Assembly: GCF_046293665.1 (NCBI RefSeq)
Contig: NZ_JBKBOL010000007.1
Location: 83,950 to 147,949, forward strand
Direction of reading: 5' to 3'
Length of the DNA stretch: 64,000 bases
From: Flavobacterium sp.
GTDB lineage: Bacteria; Bacteroidota; Bacteroidia; Flavobacteriales; Flavobacteriaceae
Shown: positions 30,397 to 51,360 of the stretch, in pieces
Position numbering within the stretch: the stretch's first letter is position 1
Layout: the number at the start of each line of letters is the position of its first letter
Notes under the pieces: generated by a model
Told to the model about the DNA's origin: nothing
Databases searched by the model: none
The model's input: only the letters and a program-made list of their open reading frames with translations
Position numbers and translations under genes: made by a program

Positions 30397-32547
30397 ATGA
30401 AGAAAATTATTTTATCCTTGATTGCAGCTATCATGCTTGTTCCAACGAGTGTAAAAGCTGACGAAGGAATGTGGTTTTTGATGTTTCTCGAAAGATTGAA
30501 CCACCGAGACATGCAAAAAATGGGCTTGCAATTGACAGCCGAAGAGATTTACAGTATCAACAATCACAGTTTGAAAGATGCTATTGTGCAATTCAACGGA
30601 GGTTGTACTGCGGAAATTATTTCTAAAGATGGTTTGGTTTTAACCAATCACCACTGTGGTTATGACGCGATTGCAGAATTATCTACTGCTGAGAAAAACT
30701 TATTGAAAGATGGTTTTTGGGCAGAAAACAGAAAAGCGGAAATCAAACCAGCTAGTTTGTTTGTTCGTTTTTTCGTAAGAATGGATGACTGTACCAAACG
30801 TATTTTAGCAGTTGTTACGCCTGGAATGAGCGAAGCAGATAGAGAAAAAGCCATCAATGCTGAAATCGCTAAAATTGAAAAAGAAAACAATGCCGGTGGA
30901 AAATACACCGTTTCTGTTCGTCCTTTTTTCCAAGGCAATGAATATTACTATTTCGTTTACCAAGATTACAAAGATGTTCGTTTGGTAGGAACGCCACCGG
31001 AAAGTTTAGGGAAATTTGGAGGTGATACTGATAACTGGGAATGGCCACGTCACACGGCCGATTTCTCTATGTTTAGAGTATATGCTGACAAAGACGGAAA
31101 TCCGGCTGATTATTCAGAAAGCAATGTTCCGTTACAACCAAAACACTATTTACCGGTTAATATTGGTGGTGTAAAAGAAAATGACTTTGCTATGATTTTA
31201 GGTTATCCTGGTAGAACCAACCGTTGGATGCCAGCTAGCGGAATTGAGCAAAACGTAAAATTTGCTTATCCTGCTTGGGTTGAAGGTGCTAAAACCGGTA
31301 TGGACAACATGAAAAAATACATGGACCAAAGTGATGCATTGAACTTGGTTTATGCTTCAAAGTATGCTTCAACTGCAAATTATTGGAAAAACCGTCAAGG
31401 AATGATTGATGCTTTGACCAAATTTGGTACCGCTAAAACAAAAGCAGCTCAAGAAGCTAAATTCAATACTTGGGCAAACAAACCAGCCAACAAGGCTAAA
31501 TATGGTAATGTAGTTTCCAATATCAATAAGTTTTACGCTTTGACCAATGAGAAATCAAGACATGATAACTATTTAACACAATTGTTCAGAACTACTTCTT
31601 TTGGAACCATCGGAAGAACTTTAGGAAGACAACTTGAGAATTACGTTAAAGCAGATGCAGCTAAACGTGCACAAATGGCTCCGGCTATTGAGGAAATGGC
31701 TACTGAAATGTACAAAGAATTACATGTTCCGGCAGAAAGAGATTTATTGGCAGCGCAATTGAAAGTGTATGCTACTAAATCAACCGGTTATGCAATTGCG
31801 CCTGCAGTAAAAAAGATTGCTGACGAAAACAACAACGACTTTACAAAATATGTAAATGCGGCTTTCGACATGAGTATTTTTACTTCTCTAGACAGAATTA
31901 AAGCATTCTTGGTTATTCCTAGTCAAGGTGTTTTAGAAAATGATCCTTTGTTTGTATTGTCAAATGATATGATTACTCATTTCAACTCAAAATCTGACGA
32001 AATCACTAAAGCACAAAATGATTACAGTGCTTCATTCCGATTATTAGTAGAAGGTTTAAGAGAGTCAAAAATTGCTTCTATCAAATATCCTGATGCTAAT
32101 TCAACGATGCGTTTGACTTACGGAAAAGTACGTTCGTTACCGGCGGATAAACGCAATGATGCTAAAATTAACAACTACACTACGCTTGACGGTCAAGTTA
32201 AGAAATACAAAAAAGGTGACCAAGAGTTTGATTTGCCGGTTAAAGTTTTGGAGATGAATAAAGCTAAAAACTACGGTAGATTTGCTGATAAAGACGGAAG
32301 TCTTCACGTGAATTTCTTGACGGATAACGATATTACAGGTGGAAATTCAGGTTCACCGGTATTGAATGGTAAAGGCGAATTAATCGGTTTGGCTTTTGAC
32401 GGAAATATTGAAGCTATGGCCGGTGACGTAATCTTTGATAGTAAATTACAAAGAACCATCAATGTTGATATTCGTTATGTGTTATGGGTAATTGAGAATT
32501 TCTCAGGAGCAAAGCACATTGTTGATGAAATGACTTTGATTAAATAA
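30397..32547 (+). CDS. S46-family dipeptidyl-peptidase (DPP7/DPP11-like)
   Basis: 716 aa. The mature N-terminus 'DEGMWF', 'TNHHCG' (His) and 'GGNSGSPV' (Ser) are hallmarks of family S46. Confidence 0.9.
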   Translation: MKKIILSLIAAIMLVPTSVKADEGMWFLMFLERLNHRDMQKMGLQLTAEEIYSINNHSLKDAIVQFNGGCTAEIISKDGLVLTNHHCGYDAIAELSTAEKNLLKDGFWAENRKAEIKPASLFVRFFVRMDDCTKRILAVVTPGMSEADREKAINAEIAKIEKENNAGGKYTVSVRPFFQGNEYYYFVYQDYKDVRLVGTPPESLGKFGGDTDNWEWPRHTADFSMFRVYADKDGNPADYSESNVPLQPKHYLPVNIGGVKENDFAMILGYPGRTNRWMPASGIEQNVKFAYPAWVEGAKTGMDNMKKYMDQSDALNLVYASKYASTANYWKNRQGMIDALTKFGTAKTKAAQEAKFNTWANKPANKAKYGNVVSNINKFYALTNEKSRHDNYLTQLFRTTSFGTIGRTLGRQLENYVKADAAKRAQMAPAIEEMATEMYKELHVPAERDLLAAQLKVYATKSTGYAIAPAVKKIADENNNDFTKYVNAAFDMSIFTSLDRIKAFLVIPSQGVLENDPLFVLSNDMITHFNSKSDEITKAQNDYSASFRLLVEGLRESKIASIKYPDANSTMRLTYGKVRSLPADKRNDAKINNYTTLDGQVKKYKKGDQEFDLPVKVLEMNKAKNYGRFADKDGSLHVNFLTDNDITGGNSGSPVLNGKGELIGLAFDGNIEAMAGDVIFDSKLQRTINVDIRYVLWVIENFSGAKHIVDEMTLIK

Positions 32548-32568: not shown

Positions 32569-32605
32569 AAAAAAACGTCCCGAGCAATTGGGACGTTTTT
32601 TTTTT
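32569..32605. terminator. Bidirectional intrinsic terminator (copy 1 of an identical 34-nt hairpin)
   Basis: A7-cgtccc-gagcaatt-gggacg-T10. The T-run overlaps the stop codon of the A2M gene. Confidence 0.85.
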
Positions 32606-35600
32606 ATTCAGTTACCTTGATTCTGATACCTTTAGTATGGCTAGTGAATTCAGGCGCGTACATACTTTCTATGGTTGTAATTCCGTTCGAAAAATCGCCT
32701 TTGTTGTTTACTCGAATGTCATATTCAATCACATAAGTTCCTTGGTTTACATTATCAAAAAAGAAATGGGTTGCCGCGTCTTTCGTACTTTTATAATAAC
32801 TGGTTCTTTCCTTCCATTCATATTTAGAAAGTATGTCAACCGGCTCAAAGCAAGAAGCTCTCATATCTTTTAAATGTATGAATTCCATATCTTCTTTGGT
32901 TTCAATCACCAACCTTACCGTTACTAAATCGCCAATTTTCAAAGGATTTTTGGAAGTGATTTTTTCCAATTGTTTCCCTTCATTTGTGTTTTTCTTTAGG
33001 TACAATTCTTTTGTAACGGACATTACGCTTTTATCACTCGATTTTATTTGATCTAAATCTTCAAAATATTGCCAATAAATACCACCGTAATTGGGTACTT
33101 TCGAATTATTTTCAAAAGAAACATTTGCCATATCATTATTGATTTCATCAGCTTTCCAATTCATTTTTACATAACCGGTTTCAGCTTCTTTTTCGTTTTC
33201 TGTTAGTTTTGTGGTTAGGATTTTATTATTGCCAATTTTTATTTTGGTATTGTCTTTTACCGATAACCAATCACTTCCTTGGTATAATAATGCATAGATT
33301 GCTTCAGTAGTAGCTTTGGTGGTTTCCCAATTTTTGGTTTGTTTGTTTTTCAAAAGCCAAACCTTCATTGCCTCAACGGATTTATTGTCATTAGTGATTT
33401 CGGCGAATGCTTCAATTAATAACGCTTGGGTTTCTATTGGTGATTGGTACCAATACCAACCGGTTTTATTTTCAATCCAATACATCCCTGAATCTTCATT
33501 TGCGACTGATGTTTCTTTCAGGCTTTCGATGATTTTTTTGGCCGTAGTTTTATCTCCGAATCGATTTAAGACCATTGCGGCTAGTGCTTTGTTATGAATG
33601 GAATAAGTTCGCCAATCTGTTTTTATACTTTGCAACTGTTTGGTTGAGATAGCTTTAATTTTTTCGTTTATCGGATTACTTTCTAAATAAAATGTTCTCA
33701 TGTATAAATAATGTAAATCGGCATATTGTGTATTCCAAATTTTATAATCTTTTGAAATATTATTGTTATCCAAGTATTTATTGTCTAAATAATTAATGGC
33801 TTTTTTTGTAATTCCGGTGAAGCTATCGATGGTTTCTTTTTTAATCTTTAACTTTTGAAGATGTCCTAATCCACTGAGGATGTGTCTTGTAATGTATTCG
33901 TTTTCATTTCCGCCATCAAACCAAGCAAAGCCACCGGAAGGTTTTTGTTTTTCTTTTATTTTATGGAGGATGGCTTCTTCATTGGATTTGGTTTTCTCTA
34001 AATCGAAAAGTACAGCCATATTTTTTCGCTTTTCTTCTTCACTTTGGGCATCATTCATCCATGGTGTTTCGGCTAAAAGTAACGATTTTAACTCTTCGTT
34101 TTGTTCCAATTTAGAAATTGGTTTTCCTGATTTTCTCCATTGTTCAAAAACGTTGGCTATTTTTGGATTGTTATTGATAACCTCTGAGGCCAAGACATTG
34201 GCATAATATTTAGAAAATAATTGTTCGGCACAATCATGTTCATATTCCATCAAATAAGGTAAAGATTGAATAGCAATCCAAGTTGGATTACTCGTGTATT
34301 CCAAAGTAAACAAATGGTGGCGCAATGTAGCGGAAGTGTTGTTTTTTAAATTAGTCAACACATATTCTTTCTTACTGTTTTCTCTGACCCAAACCGGAAT
34401 CGTTTCGGTCACTAAAATGTTATTCGTCAATACCGGCAAAATACTTTCTTCACCATCAGAATAATTCCCTGCTTTGGCAATTACTTTGTATTGTAATCCT
34501 TGTAAACCTTGCGGGACTGTTATCTTCAAACTCACAACACTATTGCCGGAAGGCGTAATGGTAAAGTTGCGAATAGCATCAATATTCTTTGTTTTGGTAT
34601 CGATGTTTTCCATAGTTGTAGCATCAAAGAGTTGTAAAATGGCCATGCCGGTTTTGAGTTCGGGAGTTAGATTAGCCACTTTTGCCGAAATAACGATAGT
34701 GTCATTTTCTCTAAAAAATCTTGGCATATTAGGGAAAACCATTAATTCTTTTTGGGTTACCACACTTTTTTCTAAATAGCCTGTAAGTGCTTTTTTATTG
34801 TGTGCTAATAAGCGAAGTTTCCATTCTGTTAGTTCTTCAGGCGCATTGAATTTAAAACTTATTTTCCCTTCTTTATCGGTTCGAATTTGAGGAAAGAAAA
34901 AAGCGGTTTCGTTTCTGTTGGTTCGGGTTTTAACTTGGGTTAACTCTTCTATAGCTTTTAGGGTACTGATAATAATTACACCATTGCTTCCTCTATTGCC
35001 GTAAATGCTTGTCGCAGCAGCGTCTTTAAGTACTTTGGCATCTGCAATGTCATTCGGATTTAATTTTAAAAATGCATCTCTTGAGATTGGAACACCATCT
35101 ACCACATATAATGGTTCTGAATTTGAAGTAATTGCACCAACACCTCTTATTATAATACTAGTTCCGCTTCCTGGTGAACCTGTTCCTGTGGTTATGTTTA
35201 AACCGGCTATTTGACCTTGTAATGTTTGAATAAATGAGGCATTTGGTCGGTTTTCAATAGTTTCAGAATTAACCGTAGCTTGCGCGACTATCGTTGATGA
35301 TTTAGTAGTGTTTCTATATGCTTCTACTACTACTTGATCTAATTTTACACCGCCATCTATCAAGTTTACATTTATTTCATTGGTGTTTACAACTGCAATT
35401 CTATTATTATAACCTGTAAAAGAAATAATGAGTACTTCGCCAACGGCAGCTTCAATTTCGTAATAGCCATCAAAGTCAGCTTGGGTACTTCTGTTAGTTC
35501 CTTTTATAACTATGTTCGCTCCGGGTAACGGTCCGGTTCTATCCGAAACTATTCCGGTTATTAGTTTGGAATTGGTTGGTTTTATTGCTTTTTTGGTAAT

Positions 35601-38600
35601 TTGCTTTTGGTATTCCTTGAGAACACTTGGATTGTTGGTATTGTTTATGTCAAAACCGAACCACATTAGTTGGGTACTTTCATTTTGATATTCGAATCTT
35701 TTATTGTTTTGATTCTGATAGTTTATTTGAAAATATTGCATCCCGTTGCTAAGCTCTGTTTTGCCATAGTAATTATGAGATATTCTCTCATTATTTTTCA
35801 AGGTATTCCATTGGGTAGTTTTAAATTGGTCTAATGAAGCATCATACATAGAAGCCAAGACTTCAGCTTCTAATTTAGCATTGTTTTCTTTGATTTTGAA
35901 AGACCAATTTTCCTCATTTCCCGGTTCTAATTTATTTCTGAAGCTTTCGATTTCGAAACTAATTTTGGGAACATCTTCTTTAAGTACAATTATTTTATCT
36001 GTTCTAAAATATTGATTTTCAAATACATTTTCAACGGTGAGTTTAAATCCTTTGCGCACATAATTTGCAATTGGGATTCTAATTTCTTGTTGGTGGTTTT
36101 TCACCATAATATCATTTTCGTATATGAGACTGTCTTGAAAATGGGCACTAAGCGAAAGATTCAATTCCGGTAAAGCGGTTTTAATCAATATTTTGGCAAA
36201 GCCATCTTTTATCGGATTTTCGTTGACTTGTTCGATTGTTACCAAACTGTTTTCTGGAACATTATTAGTTTTCTTTTGGAAAAGTTGAAAATCAGTTGAG
36301 GTTTCAATCGGATTATTGAATTGATCACTGGCTGAAAAAACTACTTTGTAATGCCCTGATTTATAATTAGAAATAAAATTTAATGGCAGCGTTTTTTCCT
36401 TTGCAGTGTTGATTTTTTTTGTGTAAACTAATAATCCATTGATGTTACTCTCAGTTGCTTCTTCATTATTTTCATATGGGAACAGTTTTTCAAAATCTGA
36501 ATCAGAAATAGATTTTATTTCCGGTTGATTGAAAACTCTTTTTTTGAATTTATTAAGGAATGCTTTCTGATAATATATTTTTATTTCTCCTTCTACGGGA
36601 ATGAATTGATTATTGAGGTTAGTACTGTTTATCAACATGTTTCCTTTTTCATTGGAGTTCAAGATGGAAGGTATCAATACTTCTAATTTTAAAGTGTGAT
36701 AACCTACTTTAACAATGGTATTTGCTGAGTGAGTTTCTCCATTATTATCAGTTACATCGGCTGTGATTACATAGTTAAACGTTGGCAGATTCTCTCTGGG
36801 ATAATCTTTAGCCGGAATGGCATCGAATTCAATATTAAATTTACCATCAGCATCGGTTTTTGTTTCCGATGAAACTAGTGTTTCTTCATCATTTGACCAA
36901 TCATCTCTCCAATTGTTAAACGATTTTCTTTCAACTGTATAAGTTACTTTAGCGTCGGATATTTTACTTCCTGCAAAGGCTTTCGCTATTCCTACAACTT
37001 TTATTTTTTGGTTTACGGTATAAGTTTCTGTAACGGGTTCAAATTTGGTTTCAAACTTAGGGCGTTTGTATTCTTCTACACTAAAATACGTATAAGAGTC
37101 ATTCATTTCTCCATTGTCCCAAATAGGATGCTCTTCCAATATGGTATTGTAAAGCGCGTCTTTTTCGTAATCATCTGGTTCTTCAATACTTAGATTGTAT
37201 TGTCCGGTTATGCCATTTTTTGGCAGTACAAATTCGCCAACAAAAGATCCAAATTCATTAGTAGTTAGTTCAAATGATTTGAGTTCGTCTCCATTGGCAT
37301 CTTCTACAATGACTTTTAGTAAAAAATTGGGCAATATTTTTTGTTCATTATGCAACGTTTGTGTCGCAATGCCTTTGAAATAAACTGTTTGACCCGGACG
37401 ATATATTGCTCTATCGAGATAGAAATTTACTTTGGCTTCAATTTCAGAGTCGTAATCTGAATAATATTGTCTAATATAGTTGCCGAGTACCTGAATTGTG
37501 TCATTTAGATGGATTACTGCAATTTTTTTATCTTGAAACTTATAGTCTTTCTTTTGATGGTCAAGTTTAAAAAAGGCAATTCCCTTTTCGTTTGTTTTTA
37601 AATCGAAATAATCACTTTTTATTTGACAATCGACAATTGGTTGGCCTGTTTTTCTGTGGATAGTTTGAAAATACAGTTTATTTTCTTTTTGGTAACTCAA
37701 CAGTGTTGAATTAGTTACGGTGATTTTTTTGTAGATTGATTTCGATTTTATTTCGCTCAAGTCTTCAACTAAAACAATATAATTTCCCAATTCTAGTTCG
37801 GGAAAAAGAACCTCTGTGCTGTAGTTGAAATAATCCTTTTGGTTTGGTAAATAATATTTCTTAGAGATGTTTTTTTTGCTCTTGGATTTGTGATTTTTTA
37901 CTATACTATCATTAGTCAAATCGGCATGGAAAATTTTGCTGTTTACTTTGTAAAATGAGATCTGTATTGAATCTACATTTTTGAAATGAATTTGTGCTCT
38001 CGTTTTTTCTTTCTCGTAAGTATATTGCAACATGTTTAGGTCAAGCTCTTTCGAGATTATCCAATTTTTTTGCTGAATTCCTTTTTTGACTGCATTTGAT
38101 TTGTTTGGAATAGCTATGATACTATCCAAGATACTTAAAGCTTTAGCGTTGTAATTTTTAAAATCCTTTTTTGAAGCTGAATTTTTATATAGTATAGCTT
38201 TCTCAAGTTGGATTTTTTGGGTTAGATGGTTGTCTTTTGATTGTTTTTGTAAATTGTCAAGTCTCTTTAAAAGTTCATGGTCTTTCTTAATTATATATTT
38301 GTTGCAAAATAATAGACGATCTAATTCGAGTTCAGATGGAGTTGTTTTTAGATTTGCTTTTTGATATAACTCGAGTACTTTTGTTACAGACGGACTTTTT
38401 ATATTGGTTAGTTTTAACGAATTAAATTCTTCGTTATTTCCCAATAAATTCATATTGTAATTCGAGAATTGGAAATCTTGCATTTCCCAGTGGTTGATTT
38501 TTTGAATATAGTAATCAATATTCGCCCGTATTAAATAGTCATATAATGTAGTGTTGTTGAATTTTTCTATTTGGAAGTAATCAAAAATAGGATCATATTG

Positions 38601-39098
38601 TTTTAAGGGTGTATTTTTTAATATTTCAACTTCTTTTAAAGTATTAGTGTAGGCACTGTTTATTTGACTTTCAAAATCATTTAAACTCCAAGTGATAAAA
38701 TCTCTAATTTCAATAGTGTCTCGTTTAGTTCGGCTATAGATTTTATTTTGATTTTTGTCTAGATATGATTTTAAACATCGTGCATAAATTAAATTAAGGA
38801 TTGCTTTTGAAGCAATTGGAGCTTTGGTAATTCTGTCTTGAAGATTGAGAATTATTTTTCTTTGAGCATCTTCTTCCAAAGTCAGCATGTATTTTGAAGA
38901 ATAGAAAAATGTTTTTATAAGTTGCACTTCGTTTTTAGTGCTATTAGCTTTAGATTGAATTTTTGTTACAATTTCGTTGGCGGATTTTATTTTTCCTTCA
39001 TTTTCAAGTTGGATTACCTTGTCCCAGTTTTTGTCAAAGTTTTGAGTGAAGCCAAATGAAAAAATAAAGAATAGAATGGTAGTGTATATATATTTCAT
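32604..39098 (-). CDS. Thioester-containing alpha-2-macroglobulin family protein with an embedded SusC-type CarboxypepD_reg-like + Plug module
   Basis: About 2164 aa from the ATG at 39098, with signal peptide MKYIYTTILFFIFSFGFTQ. Features: MG-type 'YRPGQTVYFKGIAT', 'NETAFFFPQIRTD...LTEWKLR', the thioester 'CAEQ' (34221-34232), and the SusC-like 'GIVSD..GPLPGANIVIKGT...LQGQIAGLNI...EPLYVVDGVPI...IYGNRGSNGVIIIST' (about 34960-35566). Confidence 0.8.
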   Translation of the reverse strand: MKYIYTTILFFIFSFGFTQNFDKNWDKVIQLENEGKIKSANEIVTKIQSKANSTKNEVQLIKTFFYSSKYMLTLEEDAQRKIILNLQDRITKAPIASKAILNLIYARCLKSYLDKNQNKIYSRTKRDTIEIRDFITWSLNDFESQINSAYTNTLKEVEILKNTPLKQYDPIFDYFQIEKFNNTTLYDYLIRANIDYYIQKINHWEMQDFQFSNYNMNLLGNNEEFNSLKLTNIKSPSVTKVLELYQKANLKTTPSELELDRLLFCNKYIIKKDHELLKRLDNLQKQSKDNHLTQKIQLEKAILYKNSASKKDFKNYNAKALSILDSIIAIPNKSNAVKKGIQQKNWIISKELDLNMLQYTYEKEKTRAQIHFKNVDSIQISFYKVNSKIFHADLTNDSIVKNHKSKSKKNISKKYYLPNQKDYFNYSTEVLFPELELGNYIVLVEDLSEIKSKSIYKKITVTNSTLLSYQKENKLYFQTIHRKTGQPIVDCQIKSDYFDLKTNEKGIAFFKLDHQKKDYKFQDKKIAVIHLNDTIQVLGNYIRQYYSDYDSEIEAKVNFYLDRAIYRPGQTVYFKGIATQTLHNEQKILPNFLLKVIVEDANGDELKSFELTTNEFGSFVGEFVLPKNGITGQYNLSIEEPDDYEKDALYNTILEEHPIWDNGEMNDSYTYFSVEEYKRPKFETKFEPVTETYTVNQKIKVVGIAKAFAGSKISDAKVTYTVERKSFNNWRDDWSNDEETLVSSETKTDADGKFNIEFDAIPAKDYPRENLPTFNYVITADVTDNNGETHSANTIVKVGYHTLKLEVLIPSILNSNEKGNMLINSTNLNNQFIPVEGEIKIYYQKAFLNKFKKRVFNQPEIKSISDSDFEKLFPYENNEEATESNINGLLVYTKKINTAKEKTLPLNFISNYKSGHYKVVFSASDQFNNPIETSTDFQLFQKKTNNVPENSLVTIEQVNENPIKDGFAKILIKTALPELNLSLSAHFQDSLIYENDIMVKNHQQEIRIPIANYVRKGFKLTVENVFENQYFRTDKIIVLKEDVPKISFEIESFRNKLEPGNEENWSFKIKENNAKLEAEVLASMYDASLDQFKTTQWNTLKNNERISHNYYGKTELSNGMQYFQINYQNQNNKRFEYQNESTQLMWFGFDINNTNNPSVLKEYQKQITKKAIKPTNSKLITGIVSDRTGPLPGANIVIKGTNRSTQADFDGYYEIEAAVGEVLIISFTGYNNRIAVVNTNEINVNLIDGGVKLDQVVVEAYRNTTKSSTIVAQATVNSETIENRPNASFIQTLQGQIAGLNITTGTGSPGSGTSIIIRGVGAITSNSEPLYVVDGVPISRDAFLKLNPNDIADAKVLKDAAATSIYGNRGSNGVIIISTLKAIEELTQVKTRTNRNETAFFFPQIRTDKEGKISFKFNAPEELTEWKLRLLAHNKKALTGYLEKSVVTQKELMVFPNMPRFFRENDTIVISAKVANLTPELKTGMAILQLFDATTMENIDTKTKNIDAIRNFTITPSGNSVVSLKITVPQGLQGLQYKVIAKAGNYSDGEESILPVLTNNILVTETIPVWVRENSKKEYVLTNLKNNTSATLRHHLFTLEYTSNPTWIAIQSLPYLMEYEHDCAEQLFSKYYANVLASEVINNNPKIANVFEQWRKSGKPISKLEQNEELKSLLLAETPWMNDAQSEEEKRKNMAVLFDLEKTKSNEEAILHKIKEKQKPSGGFAWFDGGNENEYITRHILSGLGHLQKLKIKKETIDSFTGITKKAINYLDNKYLDNNNISKDYKIWNTQYADLHYLYMRTFYLESNPINEKIKAISTKQLQSIKTDWRTYSIHNKALAAMVLNRFGDKTTAKKIIESLKETSVANEDSGMYWIENKTGWYWYQSPIETQALLIEAFAEITNDNKSVEAMKVWLLKNKQTKNWETTKATTEAIYALLYQGSDWLSVKDNTKIKIGNNKILTTKLTENEKEAETGYVKMNWKADEINNDMANVSFENNSKVPNYGGIYWQYFEDLDQIKSSDKSVMSVTKELYLKKNTNEGKQLEKITSKNPLKIGDLVTVRLVIETKEDMEFIHLKDMRASCFEPVDILSKYEWKERTSYYKSTKDAATHFFFDNVNQGTYVIEYDIRVNNKGDFSNGITTIESMYAPEFTSHTKGIRIKVTE

Positions 39099-39219: not shown

Positions 39220-39253
39220 AAAAAACGTCCCGAGCAATTGGGACGTTTTTTTT
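39220..39253 (-). terminator. Intrinsic terminator of the 1906-aa gene (copy 2 of the identical 34-nt hairpin)
   Basis: aaaaaacgtcccgagcaattgggacgtttttttt is identical to 32570-32603. It lies 18 nt past the stop at 39272. Confidence 0.85.
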
Positions 39254-39271: not shown

Positions 39272-42200
39272 TTAATGAATCAATTTCTTTTTCACTACTA
39301 TATCATTCTCGAGTTTGATTTCAGCTATATAAATGCCATTAGGATAATTGAAACTGTCTGAGAGTTGTTTTGATGCATTCGACAGATTGTAGTGATTGAT
39401 TAATTTTCCTGAAATGTCAAAAATCTTAACAGATTCAATAAATTCACTCGAGGTCACTTTGATAGTATTATTAGAAATTGTTGCAAAAGTATTACTGTTG
39501 TCCGGATTGTTTACGTTTAAGGCATTGGTAACATATACTATTTCAAATCTATTTTCAAAAGTACCAGCAACCGAATTAAAGGTGTATGGACTTTGTTTGA
39601 TATTATGGTCAATAGAAAGTAAATTGTCTCTCAAGTAAATGGTTTGATCTCCTAAAAACAATCCGTCTAATTCATCCACTGCAATTGAATACATACCCGG
39701 ATTAGTGATTTTGTAGCCTAAAGGAACTACATCGTTTTCATCAAATGGTAATGCTCTTCCTTGGATTGCCAAGCTTTTATCATTTAAAATAGAATAGAGG
39801 TTTATCTCGTTGTTTGTAAAGCTTACACCATCATAATAGGTGTCGAAACCATTTGTAGCTTCTGCCTTATAATTAACCATCATCTGTCGGAATGTATTGT
39901 CGCTGTATAGGTTTAGCCAGATTCTGTTGTTTTCAGAACTATTTTCAGAATCAGTAGTGAAGTTGGAGGTTCTGAAAAACTGGTTATTATCATTCATTAC
40001 CCGCATGCTGTTGTTGAATGTAATGTTACCATCAGCATAAACTTGAGCAAAGAAACCTTGCCCTGCTGCAATTTTTCCATTTGGTTTTAAACTTGCATTA
40101 GAAGGGTCTGTTGAAGGAGCTGTTCCAACACCTCCTGAAAGATTCCAACTAGCGTAATCCAAAACATTATAAGGACCAAGTCCGTTATACAATGTAATTG
40201 ATGTCCAAAAGAATAAAGTTCCTCCTAATTCTGAATTGCTTTCAGGAAGACTTGTTGGTGATATACCATATTTTAAAAATTTCTCTCCGTCAATAGCGCT
40301 TGGATACGGATTTGAAAGTAAAACGGTGTTACCGGCAACAGTTGAGCTTGCGTCAAAACTATCAACAGGTACGGTTACTGCCCCATTTCCCGGAGTGCCT
40401 TGAAATACAAAATCTATAGTTCCTGTACCGGTACTAAAAGGAGCAATATTACTTACTCTGGTAATGAAACCTTGTCCGGGAACAACAGAAGATAAACTCA
40501 TCCACGCACCAGTTGAAGTGCCGGATTGCCATCTGTATTTCAAATCAAATTGGCTTGGGATTTGACTAAAGATGTTTTCTGCGACAGGCGTACCCCAATA
40601 AACATAACCCCATCGTGTCATTGGACGTGTTGTTCGCGTCATTTTTATAAATCCGTTATTGATGGCGGTGTCATTAATTTGGATTAAACTAGCACTGTTT
40701 TTTATGTCAAATAGTCCTCCGGTTTTAACAAGAACTTCATCGGTTATGGTGATGTTGTTGTTAGATTCGATGGTCAAATTTCCTCCGCTTTTCACAGTTA
40801 TGTTTTTACCATAAGCTTCATAATTTGTTCCGGAAATGATTGGGTCATGAGGCGTGTCGGGAATGATGATACAGTTGCTGGAGTCGGGTTTCCCCAATGG
40901 CATCCAATTTTCATCGTCATCCCAAAGACTGTCTGTTCCATTCCAAATTTTGGTTTTATTTGTTACTGTAATAACTTGAGAAGTTAAACACCCATTGTCT
41001 AAAATAGCATTTACACTGAAATTAAAACTGGCAAGTTCTAATTGCGCTAAAGTTGGTTTTACATAAATTACAGGTGCAGTTGTCAAAGGATCATAAGCAA
41101 TGGTACAGGCAGCATCTGTAAATGCCGGAATAGTGGTGTCCCAATTTAAATTGACATTCGGTCTATTACCAAACAATTTAATATCATCTACAGCTATTCC
41201 ATCACACCAGTTGTTATTGTAATATCTTACCCTAACCTTAAGTTGATTCACTCCAATGTAAGCAGATAAGTCATAAGTTAAAGTTTCAAATCTTGTTCCG
41301 ATTCCAACGTCTTCAGTAAAGCGCTTTATTTCAATCCAACTAGAACCGTTATTAGTAGAAACATCAATTGTAGCATATTCATCTGTCGGATAAGCACCAT
41401 CAATAAAATATCTAGAATAGAACAATCTCAAACTTAAAGTTAAGCTGGTGAAATTCACTGTACTCACAGTTGATGAAGCAATTTGATTGTGTACATACGG
41501 TATTGCGTTAGCAAAGTCTGAAGTAGCCATGGCAAATCCATTACCAGTAACGCCAGATGAAACCGCAGGATACCAAGTGTTCACTCCTGAAATGGCTGTT
41601 GGGATATAAGTGCTTGTTCTGTTTTGCCATTGCGTATCAGCATTACGAACACTCGATGTGATATTGGTGTTGGTGAAAGTGCCTAATCCTGAATTGAACA
41701 TTTCATTAATCAAATGTACTTCTTCTACATCTCCGGTGGCTGATAATTCAACACCAACGTCTTCACCGCAAGAAGTTGGATTAACGGGTAAATAAGTAAG
41801 AGTAGGAATCGGACTCACAATTGCTGTTACAGCTGTTCTGGTCAGCGATTCACATCCATTGTATGCCGTTACATAATAAGTTGTCGTAGCGCTTAAAGAT
41901 GGAGTTGTCCAAATTCCAGTTGCTGTTGTGGCCACTAATGTTGCTCCTGTTGGTGTGGTGTACCATCTGAATTCAGATACCGTAGGTACAACTACAGCAC
42001 TGGTAGTTTCGAGATTAACAGTTCCCGGTCCACAAGTTCTTCCGTCAGTTATAGAAGTAATTGCAGCATTACAACTGGCTACTACCGTGAACAAGTAATC
42101 TTCCGTTTCACCTCCGTTATTGAGGTTTCCACATGGTGTAAAAGTTGTTGATCCTAAGCCGCCATTGAGATCGACACGAATACGAATTCTGTAATTGCCT

Positions 42201-44992
42201 AATGCTTGACCGGAAGGAATAATGAATCCGAAAGTGGTTGAACCTGTTGAGATGGTTCCTGAATTATAGACCATCTCCGTTGTGTTGTCAAAAGTTCCGT
42301 CTTTATTCCAATCTACCCAAGCCTTCATAAAGGAAGAGTAGGTGGCTTGAACAGAAACATTAACACCATATCCTTGGGCTTGACGACATAAATTCGTCAA
42401 GTTTGTAAAATCCTGATAACCTAGTGGAGTTGATGAATAAGTTGAATAGTTCGAAACATCATTCAATGTTCCAATAAAACTAACTTCAGTTAAATAATTG
42501 TCATCTTCTCTACCGTTGGATACAGATGGAGTACAATAATTTGATATTATAGTCGCAATTGATCCATTTAAAGGAGTTGTTGTATTGTAAGCTGGGCCAC
42601 CGGTACAAGACGAATTATAGGCAAAAACAAAAATATAATAGGTTGTGGTAGCTGATAATCCTGACGCCAAAAATGTCACATTAGAGTCATTATCAACAAC
42701 GGTATTTCCGACACCAACGGTTCCTCCAATAGAATATGATGTACCATTGACTGGAGTTGGCGTAGTCCCGGTAGTGTTTATAACAACTAAATAATTATTC
42801 GGAGCCGGACTCGGGGCGGTGAAGCTACCATTTATTGTAGTTCCTGTAGAATTTAAAATTAAGGAAGAAGGTTGTGAAGTAGGAGCAACACAAACAATAG
42901 GGTCTATAATGGTAATAGTGTAATCCTCGGTTTCGCCAAAAGTTCCATTCATTGTACAACTTGATGATGAAGTGATATTAGTTTGTCTACCATATCTAAT
43001 TCTCATTCTGGTTGAACCTAATGCGGCACCTGCCGGGATTGCGACTGCGATGGTGTTAATCGAGTTAGCGATAACGCCATTCCCAAAAGTAAAGTATTCC
43101 GTAGCATCAAAAACTTGGTTTTGATTGAAGTCAATCCATGCAGCTAATCCGTGTTTTTTATTTCCAATACCTGTTCCTACACTTAAATTGTAGGTGTTTC
43201 CGCGAGTTACAGTAGTCGTTTGTGCTCCTGTTGGAGGATAATTAGTATATCCGGCTGAAGAGCAAGTTGTATTATTGACTAAAGTGTTCAAAGTTACATT
43301 GGCAATATAATCTCCGTTGGTAGTACAGTTTAAGTTGCCGGTAGGGATACAATAATTTGTAGACAAAGTTGTTGTGTTTCCGTTTAATGGCGTTGTGTTT
43401 AAATACAAAGGACCACCGGTACAAGAGGAGTTAAAAGAGAATACAAAGAAGTGATACTGGGTGCTGATTGTCAGTCCTGTAGCGGTAAATGTAGTGTCGT
43501 TGTCAATGTCTACTACAGTATTTCCAGCGCCAACAGTTCCTCCAATAGTATAAGTAGTTCCATTTACTGGTGTTGGAATTGTTCCGGAAGTATTTCTAAT
43601 AACCAAATAACTATTAGGCGCAGGAGAAGCTGCCGTAAATGTTCCTAAAACTGAGGTTCCGCCCGGAGTTAAAATCAGATTAGTTGCTTGTGCAGTTGGC
43701 GTACTACAAGGTAAAATTGCTTGTACATTAATTTTATAATCCTGAGCATCAGTTAGACTATTTGTGTTACACGGAGTTGCTGCACCTTCTGCATTAAAAG
43801 CCAGTTCGACTCTTAGTCTCGACAAATCAACTACGGCTGTTCCGGGAACAGTAAATGTGTTGGAGACAGTAACGCTTTGTGCAGCAGCAACGGTCGAAGT
43901 TGTTGATAAAACGGTTTCAGTTGCAATATCGAAAACACCATTTAAATTCCAATCAATCCAAGCCGAGATGTTCTTTTGCGAAGTTGTTTGGTTCCAAATA
44001 GTAACGCTGATTGTATAGGAGTTGGATTGAATTAAATTAGTTGAAATACTTGGATAATAGTTGATATAACCATTCCAAGCAGTATTGTTTTGATTGATGG
44101 TGTTTAGAGTAACATTGCTGATATAAGAGGTTGCAGGAGTATTTCCTCCAACAGAACAATAAGTCAAACAGCTTGAGCCATAGGCGGTAGTAATGATAAC
44201 ATCATCAAAAGAATTATCACATGAGCCATTTGAAATAGTCCATCTCAGTGTGGCTGATGTTCCCAAAGCCAATCCTGTTACACCAGAAGTTGGAGAGTTT
44301 GGGGTTGTAATTGTAGCCGTACCTGTTACAACTGACCAAGTTCCGGTTCCAACAGCAGGAGTGTTTCCTGATAAAGTTGTAGAAGTTGTGCAAGCTGTTA
44401 AAGTTTGATCGGTTCCGGCATAAGCTGATGATGGGGCCGTTCCGGTAGTGGATGTTAGGGTGTTTGTAACAGTTGTACCATTTACTAATCCTAGTATTGC
44501 ACCGTGAGTTACTCCAACTCTTGTCGTGTTTCTGGTGATATCTCCTGTACTTGCTGTGTTTGTAGCCCTTACTTGAATGCCACTAATCGTCATAGCGTCT
44601 GTTCTGTTTGTTCCTGAAACACTGTATGTTATTGTGATCATACTAGCGGTTACTGAAATAGCGGCAGCACTTATGTTTCTTCCACCGACAAATGCGACTG
44701 TTCCGGTTCCTGCCAGAAATTCGAAATTTGTTGGCGCAACTAAGTCGATTACATGGTTGGTAGCGGCAGAGAAATTTCCATTGGCAGCTTCGGTTACAAC
44801 AATGTCACCAAGGACTTTATAGCCTGAAGGGTAACCTGAACAAACGCTTATTGATAAGTTCGGTTTAGTGATGACTACTTGAGAATAACTTTCATAACTT
44901 GTGGTTAGTAACAGAAATAAAAAAAAGCTTTTTTTGACTACTGTGAATACTTTTAAGTAACAAGTAAATATTGTTTTGTAATTGTTTTTCAT
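39272..44992 (-). CDS. Giant T9SS-sorted surface protein with three (FN3-like)+GEVED modules, a jelly-roll (MAM-like) domain and a conserved C-terminal module
   Basis: 1906 aa with a signal peptide. GEVED-like 'AQDYKINV', 'GETEDYTITI' and 'GETEDYLFTV'. The C-terminal tail is '...VKIFDISGKLI...NGIYIAEIKLENDIVVKKKLIH'. Confidence 0.85.
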   Translation of the reverse strand: MKNNYKTIFTCYLKVFTVVKKSFFLFLLLTTSYESYSQVVITKPNLSISVCSGYPSGYKVLGDIVVTEAANGNFSAATNHVIDLVAPTNFEFLAGTGTVAFVGGRNISAAAISVTASMITITYSVSGTNRTDAMTISGIQVRATNTASTGDITRNTTRVGVTHGAILGLVNGTTVTNTLTSTTGTAPSSAYAGTDQTLTACTTSTTLSGNTPAVGTGTWSVVTGTATITTPNSPTSGVTGLALGTSATLRWTISNGSCDNSFDDVIITTAYGSSCLTYCSVGGNTPATSYISNVTLNTINQNNTAWNGYINYYPSISTNLIQSNSYTISVTIWNQTTSQKNISAWIDWNLNGVFDIATETVLSTTSTVAAAQSVTVSNTFTVPGTAVVDLSRLRVELAFNAEGAATPCNTNSLTDAQDYKINVQAILPCSTPTAQATNLILTPGGTSVLGTFTAASPAPNSYLVIRNTSGTIPTPVNGTTYTIGGTVGAGNTVVDIDNDTTFTATGLTISTQYHFFVFSFNSSCTGGPLYLNTTPLNGNTTTLSTNYCIPTGNLNCTTNGDYIANVTLNTLVNNTTCSSAGYTNYPPTGAQTTTVTRGNTYNLSVGTGIGNKKHGLAAWIDFNQNQVFDATEYFTFGNGVIANSINTIAVAIPAGAALGSTRMRIRYGRQTNITSSSSCTMNGTFGETEDYTITIIDPIVCVAPTSQPSSLILNSTGTTINGSFTAPSPAPNNYLVVINTTGTTPTPVNGTSYSIGGTVGVGNTVVDNDSNVTFLASGLSATTTYYIFVFAYNSSCTGGPAYNTTTPLNGSIATIISNYCTPSVSNGREDDNYLTEVSFIGTLNDVSNYSTYSSTPLGYQDFTNLTNLCRQAQGYGVNVSVQATYSSFMKAWVDWNKDGTFDNTTEMVYNSGTISTGSTTFGFIIPSGQALGNYRIRIRVDLNGGLGSTTFTPCGNLNNGGETEDYLFTVVASCNAAITSITDGRTCGPGTVNLETTSAVVVPTVSEFRWYTTPTGATLVATTATGIWTTPSLSATTTYYVTAYNGCESLTRTAVTAIVSPIPTLTYLPVNPTSCGEDVGVELSATGDVEEVHLINEMFNSGLGTFTNTNITSSVRNADTQWQNRTSTYIPTAISGVNTWYPAVSSGVTGNGFAMATSDFANAIPYVHNQIASSTVSTVNFTSLTLSLRLFYSRYFIDGAYPTDEYATIDVSTNNGSSWIEIKRFTEDVGIGTRFETLTYDLSAYIGVNQLKVRVRYYNNNWCDGIAVDDIKLFGNRPNVNLNWDTTIPAFTDAACTIAYDPLTTAPVIYVKPTLAQLELASFNFSVNAILDNGCLTSQVITVTNKTKIWNGTDSLWDDDENWMPLGKPDSSNCIIIPDTPHDPIISGTNYEAYGKNITVKSGGNLTIESNNNITITDEVLVKTGGLFDIKNSASLIQINDTAINNGFIKMTRTTRPMTRWGYVYWGTPVAENIFSQIPSQFDLKYRWQSGTSTGAWMSLSSVVPGQGFITRVSNIAPFSTGTGTIDFVFQGTPGNGAVTVPVDSFDASSTVAGNTVLLSNPYPSAIDGEKFLKYGISPTSLPESNSELGGTLFFWTSITLYNGLGPYNVLDYASWNLSGGVGTAPSTDPSNASLKPNGKIAAGQGFFAQVYADGNITFNNSMRVMNDNNQFFRTSNFTTDSENSSENNRIWLNLYSDNTFRQMMVNYKAEATNGFDTYYDGVSFTNNEINLYSILNDKSLAIQGRALPFDENDVVPLGYKITNPGMYSIAVDELDGLFLGDQTIYLRDNLLSIDHNIKQSPYTFNSVAGTFENRFEIVYVTNALNVNNPDNSNTFATISNNTIKVTSSEFIESVKIFDISGKLINHYNLSNASKQLSDSFNYPNGIYIAEIKLENDIVVKKKLIH

Positions 44993-45255: not shown

Positions 45256-48200
45256 TTAGTTTTTCACAATTTTCTGGCTAAAATTTTTGTTAGAATTATC
45301 GCTGATTTTAACGATATATGTTCCGCTTGCTATATTAATAATAGGTATCTTTATCTCTTGTTGGTTGTTGTTTTCAATAGGATAAGTTGAAATTAATTGC
45401 CCTAATAAGTTGAAAAGGGTTACTGATTTTAAATTCAAATTTAAATCGGTATTTTTAATATTAAGACTACTGTCATTGTTGGTGAAATAGATAATAGGAT
45501 TGTTTTCTATTGGTGTATTTACTCCTAAAGTTTGTCCGGAAAAGCGCAATGAAAATCGGTTATTGTATTCGCCAATTGGCAAAGAAATAACAAAGTCATT
45601 ATTGCGGAGATTATGATCAATTCCTGTTTCATTGTCATGGATATAAATAGCCGTTGATTCTGAAATGTTTTCTAATTCAGCAATTTTTATCCTGCTTAAT
45701 CCTTCAATAGAGGTTTTGATTCCTATAGGGATTATTTGTTCAGCATTAAAATTTGGGACTGCTTGAATAGTGAATTTCCCATTACTTATATTCCAGTATA
45801 AATCATCAGAATTTAAATCAATCATCGCTGCATCATAACCAATATCAAACGCATTGGTTGAATTTTGATCAACTCCAACTAAAATTTGTCGGTATAATTG
45901 ATTTGGAGCCTCAAATAGTAATCTTATTTTCTGTCTTTCGTCATTAACGGAGTCTACATTTTCTGAACCATTCTGAGTTCTGAAAAACTGAGAGTCTGCT
46001 ACCGATTCTGCTTTGAAAGCACGTTGGCTGTTTTTAAAAGTAATAGTTCCTCCGGTCACAGGCGTGCTTAAACCTGGATTGTTTCCGGTCAAATCCGTAG
46101 TGGTGCCTGTTCCTATGAAAAAACCTTGGGCTACAGGAATGTATTTTTTTGGAGTTTTTGTTCCATTTGCACCGTTATTAGCCGTCAGAGGATCATTTGA
46201 TAATGCAACAACGCCTCCCATCAAAGTATAAGTGGCATATCCACCAACATATTGACCTAAAATATGAGTTTGTCCTCCAAAGTGATCCCAGAAATACAAC
46301 GCTCCGTTAAAAACATTGGTTGCGGCTCTTCCATCTCCATCTTTAATATTGTCTTTGATAAATTCGTCAGCATCCAAGGCAGAAGGATAAGGGTTTCCAA
46401 CCAAATAAGATTGATTCAAACTAATGTTTAAACCTATGTTTCCATTATTTGGTTTGCCTACGAAAACATAATTCTGTTCCGCCGAAGCCGAACCTAATCC
46501 GGTTACTCCTTTCATAGTGAAACCTTCACCAGGATTTGCAGTTCCGGTACTTCCCAGATGTTGCCATCCGGCATAAACTGTACTAATGCTTGTAAATTTA
46601 TAAATCCAACCGGTACTTAATTTGGCCGGAAAAGTTAAGGCACCGTCTGCAAAATTAACATCCGCACCATAGTTCAAAGCACTTGGGTTAAAAGGATTTA
46701 CGGCAGCATCTGAACCATCTCTTAGTACACCGCTAATGGAATAGTTTGTGCCATTTGTAGTAACGGGCGATGACCAGTAATTGTAATGATAACTACTTTG
46801 TGTTCCTTGTTGGTCTTTTAAAATTTTACCGGTTCCACTCGATGGATTGGCAGTTGTGCCATTCTGTACTATTTGTGCTTCGCCGGTTAAGCGCAAATCA
46901 CCATTTAATAATGACAGATGATTTTGAACAGTTAATTCAAAATGATTAACCAAACTGATTCCTCGGGCACTATTAGAATTGTTAAGCGTTAAATTGTAAA
47001 ATGTTTCGTTGGTTTTTATACCGGTATTTATAGTTTGAACCTGATTAACTGTTGCGCTATTAAAAGTTACTGTTCCCATTCCCGGTGTAAATGTTCCGCT
47101 GTTTCTCCAATCTCTACTAACGTATAAATTGGAGTTGGTAGCCATTGTTAATGATGCTGTATTGGCTATGATAACATCTTGTGCTCTGGCAATATTACTA
47201 TACAAAGCAGCAAAACTAGAGGTTGAAGGATCAATAAGTGGCATTCTCACGGCACCGGCCGGAATTTGAGCATTGACAGTAGCCGATGGCATTCCGCCAG
47301 CCCAGTTTTTACAATCAAACCAATCTGTACTTTCAGCTCCTGTCCATAATCCCGGGGTTCCATTTAGAACGGTAACTACGGCTGATCCGGTCATTCCGGC
47401 TGCATTTGCTGTACATCTTGAGTCACTTAAAGCAGTGATTGTAAATGTTCGATTTGTGGTTATCCCATTAACATTAAAAACATACGGATTAGTATTGATG
47501 TTGTTTACCGTTGTAGTTGTTGATCCATTGCTGTAAGTTATACTCCAAGGAGCAACACCTGTTAAAGCAATACTAAAAGTTGCCGGACTACCTGAACAAA
47601 TGGTTTGATTCGGACCAATATTTGCTGTTGGTCTTTGATTTACATTTACGGTGATATAAGTGGTTCCTTCAGGGCCATAACTGGTACAACCATTTAAAAA
47701 TGAAGTAACCGCATAAGTTGTAGTAACTGTTGGAGTTACATTTACAGATGAAGTATTGCTAATTACTTGACCGGTAATCGAATCAACCCATTGTGTAGTA
47801 AGATTAGAAGGCGTTTCCGGGATTAAGATATTGTCAATAGCCCATGAACTGTTAGCGGTTCCATTATATACAAATCGGATTCTTAAATTAGGTTGCCCGA
47901 TATAGCTACTTAAATCAATAGTTTGATTCGGAAAGGCATTATAAGGAGTTCTGGTGCTTGCTCCAGTAAAAGAAGCCAAAACAACAGTATAAGTAGTTCC
48001 ACCATCTAAAGACAACTCAATAGAAACAGAAGCTCCGGTTTGCAAATTGAATGCATGATTAAAGCTTAAACTTGCTGAGCTCAATCCAAAAGTATTAAAA
48101 ATCGGTGTTTGCATAATGGAGTTAAAATTTCCATTAGCTATAGCAAATTTTCCAATCGAAGTATAGTTAATTCCTGAATAAGTTCCGCCATTAGTTGCAC

Positions 48201-51356: not shown

Positions 51357-51360
51357 AAAC

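Follow-up and report, generated by a model that had tools for sequence, protein, structure and literature searches.

An alpha-2-macroglobulin gene with an internal transporter-type module

The subject of this study is a 64,000-nucleotide stretch of Flavobacterium sp. DNA (contig NZ_JBKBOL010000007.1), hereafter called the window, and more precisely a gene of the alpha-2-macroglobulin (A2M) family that lies in it between a gene for an S46 peptidase and genes for type IX secretion system (T9SS) cargo. The encoded A2M harbors a module of about 200 residues homologous to the N-terminal part of the SusC/RagA TonB-dependent transporters (Table 1). A first-pass annotation of the window had reported this module and had proposed that it occupies the position of the bait, the moiety that is cleaved in A2Ms. 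The strings on which that annotation relied, namely the macroglobulin-type (MG) string YRPGQTVYFKG, the module strings and the thioester motif CAEQ at DNA 34221-34232 (aa 1623-1626), were all located as quoted, and the span that it gave, 34960-35566, corresponds to aa 1178-1380, that is to the SusC-type module.

The module comprises aa 1180-1382, begins with ITGIVSDRTG (DNA 35532-35561), ends with IIISTLKA, and consists of the N-terminal extension (NTE), the TonB box and the Plug, with no barrel behind. CarbopepD_reg_2 (PF13715) matches aa 1180-1258 (2.3e-14, 53.6 bits for a cut-off of 32.2) and Plug (PF07715) matches aa 1267-1374 (4.9e-15, 56.4 bits for a cut-off of 23.9, profile positions 3-107 of 107). 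The NCBIfam model of SusC/RagA, TIGR04056, matches aa 1180-1394 with an E-value of 5.9e-64 over positions 3-218 only of its 981; the score, 216.9 bits, lies below the cut-off of 368.25, and the A2M domain PF00207 follows aa 1382 instead of the barrel. In a search of PDB sequences, RagA (1.7e-32) and SusC BT1763 (1e-28) match the same ~200 residues. The presence of a SusC N-terminal module devoid of its barrel is thus borne out, and both of its domains score above the Pfam cut-offs. The window protein is not a member of the SusC family, nor is it a SusC transporter, because no 22-stranded outer-membrane beta-barrel follows the Plug. A segment resembling a TonB box, which the annotation had left to be looked for, is present as LDQVVVEAY; it aligns with the BT1763 TonB box, 81-VDEVVV-86, which is needed for function and, in solution, is exposed and flexible (PMC7782687).

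The rest of the protein is that of an A2M. All Pfam matches exceed the gathering thresholds and follow one another in the order MG2, CarbopepD_reg_2, Plug, A2M (PF00207) and bMG10; with A2M domains on both sides of it in the same frame, the module is not an N- or C-terminal appendage. The PF00207 match proper covers aa 1398-1480 (7.7e-16, from profile position 1) and overlaps the segment RTNRNETAFFFP (aa 1392-1403), in which R1392 and F1400/F1401 are invariant in the family. In the thioester motif, C1623 is conserved in at least 90% of the family while E1625 and Q1626 are invariant, and a thioester is predicted from the intact motif. The C-terminal MG10 domain contains KDMR (aa 2077-2080) and ESMY (aa 2144-2147, DNA 32658-32669), the counterparts of RDDR and EXMY in ECAM, the Escherichia coli A2M, where these motifs keep either the thioester domain (TED) or the bait, once cut, in place (PMC4498604).

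Two AlphaFold2 (AF2) models were examined, one of aa 965-2164 and one built from a reduced alignment. The thioester domain is modelled as all-helical and toroid-like (model residues 641-974), and beta strands are predicted at aa ~1040-1090 with a local confidence (pLDDT) of 74-89; in relatives, the Pfam match to the bait-region domain A2M_BRD ends at the equivalent of aa ~1060. Within the module, the pLDDT of the two models is 80-92 for the NTE, 61-79 for the half-Plug and 27-48 for aa 1252-1326. The best Foldseek matches of the AF2 model are the Salmonella A2M (4u48) and ECAM (5a42/4ziu), with E-values of 1e-23 to 1e-27; TEP1, A2ML1 and C3 are also matched, superfamily matches spanning 1e-19 to 1e-27. 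The window A2M, which displays the defining features open to computational test, is a member of the A2M/thioester superfamily, and it is, in my view, very probably an A2M-type protease trap. A protease-triggered conformational change followed by covalent trapping is predicted from the conservation of ESMY and KDMR as counterparts of the ECAM motifs.

The N-terminal part is specific to the family. No Pfam match was obtained for aa 1-560, even at E<=1, and alignment to ECAM begins only at aa ~372, the MG2 area aligning by hhalign to ECAM residues 189-504. The first ~350 residues are probably helical and TPR-like. The N-terminal ~520 residues are conserved throughout the A2M family of Bacteroidota and have no ECAM counterpart. 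A T9SS C-terminal domain is absent from the window A2M, which is most likely periplasmic, as judged from its Sec-type signal peptide.

Table 1. Features of the A2M gene and of the adjacent terminator (window coordinates)
Feature	Position	Strand	Basis
Complete A2M-family coding sequence, 2164 aa	32604..39098	-	Uninterrupted translation; stop codon included
Signal peptide, Sec-type, aa 1-19, MKYIYTTILFFIFSFGFTQ	39042..39098	-	Read from sequence; no Cys, no lipobox
Family-specific N-terminal region, aa 20-~540	37476..39041	-	Motif W.KV..LE..G..KSA conserved across family
MG2 domain, aa 559-645, contains YRPGQTVYFKG (aa 566-576)	37164..37424	-	PF01835, 7.5e-18
Final conserved macroglobulin element preceding the bait, aa 1041-1150, WFGF anchor at its end	35649..35978	-	Conserved in all family members
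NTE (SusC-type, CarboxypepD_reg-like Ig fold), aa 1180-1250	35349..35561	-	PF13715; RagA/BT1763 NTE alignment
TonB-box homolog LDQVVVEAY, aa 1253-1261	35316..35342	-	Aligned to BT1763 TonB box
Hypervariable, probably disordered stretch, aa 1262-1316 (post-TonB-box linker and N-terminal half-Plug)	35151..35315	-	dN, indels, pLDDT
C-terminal half-Plug, aa 1317-1382: IRG, PLYVVDG, VLKD, YG..G.NGVIIIST	34953..35150	-	Within PF07715 match; conserved in nearly all module-bearing orthologs
Alpha'NT-like segment and A2M domain PF00207, aa 1392-1480	34659..34925	-	Pfam and invariant columns
Thioester domain, aa ~1601-1940	33279..34298	-	CAEQ motif, helical AF2 model, Foldseek
C-terminal MG10 domain, aa 2026-2150	32649..33023	-	PF17973 (bMG10), 1.1e-32
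Bidirectional terminator hairpin common to two convergent genes, those of the A2M and of the S46 peptidase	32569..32602	.	Terminator scan

Mapping of the bait position

Direct alignment of the bait region with ECAM failed through distance. With the C-terminal 781 residues as query, phmmer returned no match among PDB sequences even at E<=1, a family profile reached ECAM weakly and in the MG2 area only, and hhalign against the single ECAM sequence aligned aa 372-705 only. The bait was mapped instead through Pfam anchors and through orthologs that lack the module. In the ECAM sequence (E. coli K-12), A2M_BRD covers residues 759-905 and PF00207 begins at 976. The bait has been placed experimentally in this interval: elastase treatment removes Arg923-Leu942, and the C-terminal MG domain is bound anew by residues 956-963 (PMC4498604). 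Since the ECAM bait lies between A2M_BRD and PF00207, it matches the interval that the module occupies in the window A2M. The same order is found in a relative, P0181, with A2M_BRD at 947-1059, Plug at 1160-1247 and PF00207 at 1271-1358.

Module-less orthologs carry, between the conserved anchors WFGF and R.N..ETAFF, a linker of 60-100 residues that is acidic, of low complexity and unconserved. The length of this linker is bimodal across the family, 60-100 or 220-280 residues, the window A2M having 242. Moreover, the module end lies 241 residues from the thioester Cys, for a bait-to-Cys distance of ~230-260 residues in ECAM. Finally, in all proteins of the A2M family the cleavable moiety is followed by the alpha'NT segment (R732/F735 in human A2M), which threads the central channel (PMC9352918), and R1392 and F1400/F1401, just downstream of the module, appear to correspond to R732 and F735. 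The SusC-type module therefore very probably occupies the cleavable-moiety site, as the first-pass annotation had proposed. A folded insert at that site has a precedent because a structured domain, the anaphylatoxin (ANA) domain, sits at the cleavable-moiety position of the complement factors C3, C4 and C5 (PMC9352918).

Conservation and selection within the module

Constraint on the module was assessed by comparing, column by column, two non-redundant sets, one of 173 A2M inserts and one of 93 N-termini of genuine SusC proteins. The NTE is equally conserved in the two sets. The TonB-box core, L-x-E-V-V-V, is retained at 0.94/0.81/0.90/0.84/0.83 in the A2M inserts versus 0.75/0.78/0.75/0.81/0.77 in SusC; conservation of the box in the inserts thus equals that in the transporters. 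The C-terminal half-Plug (IRG, PLYVIDG, VLKD, YG..G.NGVIIITTK) is conserved in the inserts as strongly as in SusC. By contrast, the N-terminal half-Plug (aa ~1274-1316) is relaxed, with 0.5-1 bit versus 1.3-3.9 bits in SusC and an occupancy of 0.6-0.7 at the columns richest in gaps, and it is indel-rich or deleted across the Flavobacterium orthologs. The Arg of YGSRG, conserved in SusC, is only 0.40 Lys in the inserts.

The ratio of nonsynonymous to synonymous substitution rates (dN/dS) was calculated between the window gene and its closest ortholog, which are 87% identical in amino acids. Its value is 0.126 for the whole gene, 0.14 for the NTE, 0.17 for Plug aa 1291-1382 and 0.46 for aa 1251-1290. 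In a sliding 40-codon analysis, the nine highest of 425 dN windows all fall inside aa 1226-1306. The NTE, the TonB box and the C-terminal half-Plug are under purifying selection. The stretch from aa ~1262 to 1316, between these constrained parts, probably behaves like a bait, that is, exposed or disordered, hypervariable and tolerant of indels, and it is fairly likely that cleavage occurs mainly there. The idea of the Plug as bait consequently holds for the site but probably not for the Plug as a whole, only its N-terminal half being hypervariable.

Because the inserts are exchanged with SusC genes (see below), their conservation may not have arisen in the A2M. This point is addressed by those non-redundant inserts, 62 in number, in which identity of the Plug to every SusC sampled stays below 42%. 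In these diverged inserts the TonB-box core still shows frequencies of 0.84-0.94, whereas the mean top-residue frequency of the N-terminal half-Plug is 0.24. This persistence of the core indicates that the TonB box is selected within the A2M. Docking of the trap onto TonB through the NTE and the TonB box may follow from it, although I regard this proposal, taken alone, as somewhat short of even.

Distribution of the family and of the module

The family was surveyed by searching 1.84 billion cluster representatives, of which 150 were scanned, and by collecting 80 loci from GTDB species genomes. A2Ms of this kind are 2000-2200 residues long and occur throughout Bacteroidota, in Flavobacteriia, Cytophagia, Sphingobacteriia, Chitinophagia and Bacteroidales. 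The module architecture recurs in more than 200 full-length orthologs from isolates and from metagenome-assembled genomes (MAGs), complete chromosomes included. In Flavobacterium, the matches listed comprise the window protein and 119 full-length orthologs of ~2080-2220 residues, several of them on complete replicons of 4-6 Mb; most have the same Pfam set, a Plug or NTE match being missing from some. The full module also occurs in Lutibacter, Tenacibaculum, Polaribacter, Wocania, Aquimarina, Fulvivirga and Cytophagales; in Pedobacter, only part of the Plug accompanies the NTE and the TonB box.

Of 345 family members, 204 possess the NTE and a full Plug, and 79% of these 204 fit a strict TonB-box pattern. 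The 52 intermediates are of several kinds: NTE only; NTE, TonB box and Plug start; C-terminal half-Plug only; and Plug without NTE. The same A2M family, with its N-terminal region, was also seen in MAGs assigned to WOR-3, Cloacimonadota and Calditrichota (L025, L068, L075, L077), the WOR-3 copy retaining an NTE in the bait; these copies outside Bacteroidota could reflect horizontal transfer or binning errors.

The architecture is already visible in databases, since automatic annotation labels the proteins, albeit inconsistently ('alpha-2-macroglobulin family', 'TonB-dependent receptor plug domain-containing', 'carboxypeptidase-like regulatory domain-containing'). In the literature searched, an A2M with a Plug or a TonB box is neither described nor interpreted, in agreement with the first-pass annotation, to which no experimental description was known.

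Probable exchange of the cassette with SusC genes

How similar an insert is to that of the window A2M depends hardly at all on how similar the backbones are (Spearman 0.29). Where backbone identity is 65-73%, the inserts are only 34-44% identical; for some orthologs whose backbones are 45-58% identical, the figure for the inserts is 48-55%. L002, the sister backbone of the window A2M among the GTDB loci, has the other type of Plug (see below).

Where the divergent inserts come from was examined with SusC references. A search with the module as query returned short SusC N-terminal fragments on short contigs, which served as such references and not as a survey of the architecture. Genuine SusC N-terminal fragments, recognized by a signal peptide and a barrel start, are 57-62% identical to the window module (59-62% for the two best), and for some A2M Plugs the identity to fragments of genuine SusC proteins is 72-77%. 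The same search with the module of P0007, a Flavobacterium ortholog, retrieved another SusC subfamily, of GAMGIKRTKD type, at 55%. Over the TonB box and the Plug, the window A2M is 60% identical to SusC type 1 (P0281) and only 34% identical to the P0007 insert, which is itself 62% identical to SusC type 2 (P0399); between the two SusC types, identity is 28%.

A first tree of the modules had A2M and SusC tips interleaved with a weak support of 61-77%, and the case for polyphyly became convincing only once the SusC subfamily matching the P0007-type insert was added. Two mixed clades then received a bootstrap value of 81%, one uniting the P0007-type A2M inserts with type 2 SusC and the other uniting P0101/P0116 with the SusC sequences P0285/P0286. 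Rate variation alone cannot yield motif sharing that is specific to a subfamily, which argues for recurrent replacement of the Plug. It is thus likely that the Plug cassettes are polyphyletic, having on several occasions been swapped with those of different SusC paralogs or acquired anew from them. A single ancient insertion followed by purely vertical descent is rejected on account of the decoupling of insert and backbone and of the subfamily-specific Plug similarity.

A related pattern was noticed among the transporters themselves. SusC P0281 and P0399 have near-identical signal peptides and NTEs that are 67% identical, with Plugs only 28% identical, a hint that the shuffling of NTE and Plug modules extends to the SusC paralogs among themselves.

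Genomic neighbourhood and anchoring

In E. coli, pbpC lies directly downstream of yfhM, the ECAM gene. As the first-pass annotation had stated, pbpC is absent among the genes next to the window A2M, which are those of the S46 peptidase and of T9SS cargo. In the 80 loci, the conserved neighbours are a Mpl-type Mur ligase and a TPR protein, divergent and upstream, and DUF4136, Obg and Adk/Hpt downstream; a transglycosylase is absent from the 14 commonest neighbour clusters, and neither pbpC nor a gene for a plug-less barrel is found among the conserved neighbours. The annotation was also right about the signal peptide, MKYIYTTILFFIFSFGFTQ, which contains no Cys and hence no lipobox. Family-wide, N-termini end in FAQ- or AQ-type sites of type I signal peptidase (SPI), and no systematic lipobox exists in orthologs with or without the module. 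The notion that the TonB box substitutes for a lost lipid anchor is unsupported in that form, since both classes of orthologs are devoid of a systematic lipobox.

The Mpl-type Mur ligase is present at 38 of the 80 loci and the secreted TPR protein at 24, within 1 kb in 23 cases; in the window the pair is at 50658-52716. The pairing of the Mur ligase, an enzyme of peptidoglycan recycling, with the A2M may loosely echo the A2M-PBP1c pairing of Proteobacteria, plain synteny being also possible. In many other Flavobacteriaceae the TPR/Mur ligase pair stands directly upstream of the A2M gene. In the window it is separated from that gene by two very large T9SS cargo genes on the minus strand (39272-44992 and 45256-50283), one encoding GEVED x3, Ig_7 and Por_Secre_tail and the other Big_2, a Reelin-like repeat and Por_Secre_tail. 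The closest relative, L082, has a gene for a 3126-residue PKD_6/Ig_7 protein at the same spot, which has the appearance of a variable hotspot where genes for surface proteins are inserted. A 22-nucleotide hairpin core, ACGTCCCAATTGCTCGGGACGT, which belongs to an A-run/stem/T-run terminator, occurs exactly twice in the window, at 32575-32596 and 39225-39246, both on the minus strand, so that the two copies form direct repeats flanking the A2M gene. L082 has the downstream copy only (one mismatch) and a different terminator upstream, which points to an event in the lineage of the window, a rearrangement or an insertion, on the upstream side of the A2M gene.

On the other side, the S46 peptidase gene (DPP7/DPP11-type dipeptidyl peptidase, 30397-32547, plus strand, E 3.5e-219) is convergent with the A2M gene, also in L082. 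A neighbour cluster with a 718-residue representative, probably the same S46 enzyme, is found downstream in 14 of the 80 loci, more than 4 kb away; because of this distance a functional link between the peptidase and the A2M is doubtful.

Discussion

The interpretation towards which I lean, with reserve, is that the window gene encodes a periplasmic A2M trap of a Bacteroidota-specific family that uses a SusC-derived cassette as bait and is probably docked to TonB. In its native state, by homology with characterized A2Ms, the C-terminal MG10 domain, through ESMY and KDMR, would shield the Cys1623-Gln1626 thioester. An endopeptidase reaching the periplasm would cut the hypervariable segment, aa ~1262-1316, between the TonB box and the half-Plug; position and variability of this segment are observed, and the cut itself is presumed. 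As in ECAM and human A2M, cleavage would free the alpha'NT-like R1392...FFF segment and trigger a conformational change leading to covalent capture of the protease. The conserved NTE and TonB box would, probably by strand addition, dock on the C-terminal domain of TonB, thereby placing or tethering the trap at an energy transducer linked to the inner membrane, a role played in ECAM by the lipid anchor. Recombination would repeatedly exchange the cassette with SusC paralogs or re-acquire it from them, and the cassette has been trimmed or lost in many lineages, in line with the polyphyly and the intermediates observed.

Several facts weigh against this interpretation. Trapping, the cleavage site and TonB binding are predictions that rest on sequence comparison and models. 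The global confidence of the AF2 models is low (pTM 0.53 and 0.35) despite good local confidence, so that any packing of the module on the A2M body read from them is tentative, and a low pLDDT does not prove disorder. The bootstrap values of the clades mixing A2M and SusC sequences, 61-81%, are not decisive, and conservation of the inserts could be in part imported from SusC by gene conversion and not selected in place. Among the conserved neighbours in the 80 loci there are no linked tonB/exbBD genes. Of the 345 family members, 89 are without the module and 52 have only parts of it; TonB docking is therefore not essential to the core function of the family. Moreover, in a tree built from 779 C-terminal columns the module states are scattered, and even sister species of Tenacibaculum and of Lutibacter differ in them, which implies that losses, and possibly gains, are frequent. 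Lastly, lengthening the bait of human A2M gave less native protein (PMC9352918), and a 240-residue bait may need special accommodation.

These frequent partial and complete losses, sister species included, could also be read as the mark of a neutral passenger, a SusC 5' fragment lodged in a permissive bait loop and serving only as cleavable spacer, whose conversion, decay and loss would be neutral and whose conservation would be borrowed. Decay of the N-terminal half-Plug and the clear signs of exchange with SusC genes fit such a view, as does the finding that the bait region of human A2M tolerates wholesale replacement (PMC9352918). However, between close orthologs the dN/dS of the NTE and of Plug aa 1291-1382, 0.14-0.17, is no higher than that of most of the protein; the full module has been kept across several classes of Bacteroidota; and the contrast, in the 62 SusC-diverged inserts, between the TonB-box core and the adjacent half-Plug requires selection within the A2M. 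I consider a neutral passenger unlikely, without dismissing it. Exchange with SusC takes on another meaning if the bait copies the periplasmic face of the cell's own SusC, trapping any protease or toxin whose attack on TonB-dependent transporters comes from the periplasm, with recombination maintaining the match. The cassettes have indeed kept an identity of 55-77% to N-termini of genuine SusC proteins from at least two different subfamilies, they underwent recurrent replacement rather than simple divergence, and what was captured is the entire periplasm-facing unit, not an arbitrary fragment. Yet many species do without the module, and the N-terminal half-Plug is decayed or deleted in most Flavobacterium orthologs, which is the opposite of faithful mimicry. 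No protease or toxin is known to target SusC Plugs from the periplasm, and such a decoy seems to me less likely still than a passenger.

The first-pass annotation had also entertained coupling to TonB and docking into an outer-membrane barrel. The former gains from the conserved TonB box. For the latter, the Plug would have to enter a plug-less SusC-like barrel, either anchoring the trap or gating the channel; the C-terminal half-Plug is conserved (IRG, PLYVIDG) and the Plug of the window protein scores as complete, but relaxation, indels or deletion of the N-terminal half in many orthologs, the poorly kept Arg of YGSRG and the lack of a barrel gene among conserved neighbours in the 80 loci make this idea highly improbable, and a Plug tethered at both ends to a 240-kDa protein would be hard to fit in a barrel lumen. 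As for an artefact, in which the reading frames of an A2M and of a SusC fragment had been fused by a frameshift or in a chimeric contig, nothing was found in its favour beyond the unusual architecture, and it is already refuted by the continuous frame with flanking A2M domains, by NCBI protein P0001 (Flavobacterium sp.), which is 100% identical to the window A2M, and by the more than 200 full-length orthologs.

The TonB-docked trap has a bolder version, in which the trap is stationed at, or even mechanically actuated by, the TonB-ExbBD machine, which the proton-motive force drives, and its bait is continually rewritten by gene conversion from the SusC repertoire. Here, traction on the TonB box could cause the half-Plug to unfold and the alpha'NT plug to be pulled out, no proteolysis being needed. 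This version, with or without actuation, is rather unlikely; if true, the bait would act as a decoy that keeps pace with the transporters of the cell itself, and would be the bacterial equivalent of the diversification of baits in innate immunity.

Compared with known systems, the window A2M most resembles the bacterial type I A2Ms, ECAM/YfhM and the Salmonella protein SaA2M (PDB 4u48, 5a42, 4ziq, 4rtd), its best structural matches. It shares with them multiple MG domains, MG2, PF00207, a thioester domain with CxEQ and a bMG10 domain with an EXMY-type motif, and with ECAM also a cleavable region between A2M_BRD and PF00207 and Sec export to the envelope. It differs from ECAM in being ~500 residues longer, with an unmatched N-terminal region, and in a similarity too low for phmmer; its bait is 242 residues long and contains folded SusC-derived domains, in contrast to the ~40-60-residue disordered loop of ECAM. 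Since it has neither a lipoprotein signal nor an adjacent pbpC, it is not an ECAM-type system. With SusC/RagA (BT1763, RagA; TIGR04056) it has in common an NTE, a TonB box and a Plug, whose order and spacing are those of the transporters. Unlike in SusC, however, the module is internal, is not preceded by a signal peptide, is followed by an MG domain in place of the 22-strand barrel, and in most A2M orthologs has a relaxed N-terminal half-Plug.

Complement C3, C4 and C5 likewise carry a folded domain at the bait position and are activated by a cut beside ANA, upstream of alpha'NT (PMC9352918). ANA is nevertheless an unrelated, small helical eukaryotic domain cut by dedicated convertases, whereas the inserts described here consist of a beta-sandwich and a half-Plug of bacterial transporter origin and are not known to be cut by an activating protease of their own. 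Colicins and pyocins are soluble non-transporters that engage TonB through a TonB-box strand of their own, for import through the transporter of the target cell. The window A2M resembles these bacteriocins in having a TonB box outside a transporter, with the difference that the box is internal to a resident protein of the envelope.

The architecture suggests an undescribed way of baiting or anchoring a trap. A large family spread over Bacteroidota, with members in some neighbouring phyla, apparently deals with bait and anchoring in a manner unlike that of the lipid-anchored, PBP1c-paired A2Ms with their short disordered bait, and would provide a natural example, beyond complement, of a folded domain used as the cleavable moiety of an A2M-family protein. 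Neither a selected TonB box in a protease inhibitor nor the swapping of its cassette would be expected by specialists of A2Ms or of TonB. The swapping of Plugs with different SusC subfamilies clearly exemplifies, in nature, how a gene present in one copy can recombine at the level of domains with a family present in many, and it may diversify the specificity of the bait. For the SusC NTE, which is still unexplained, the A2M offers a second, simpler context in which to find the binding partner. The genetically tractable Flavobacterium johnsoniae has an ortholog, P0031, which opens a direct experimental route. A TonB box under selection in the bait would link TonB energy transduction with protease defence of the envelope, in a way that can be tested.

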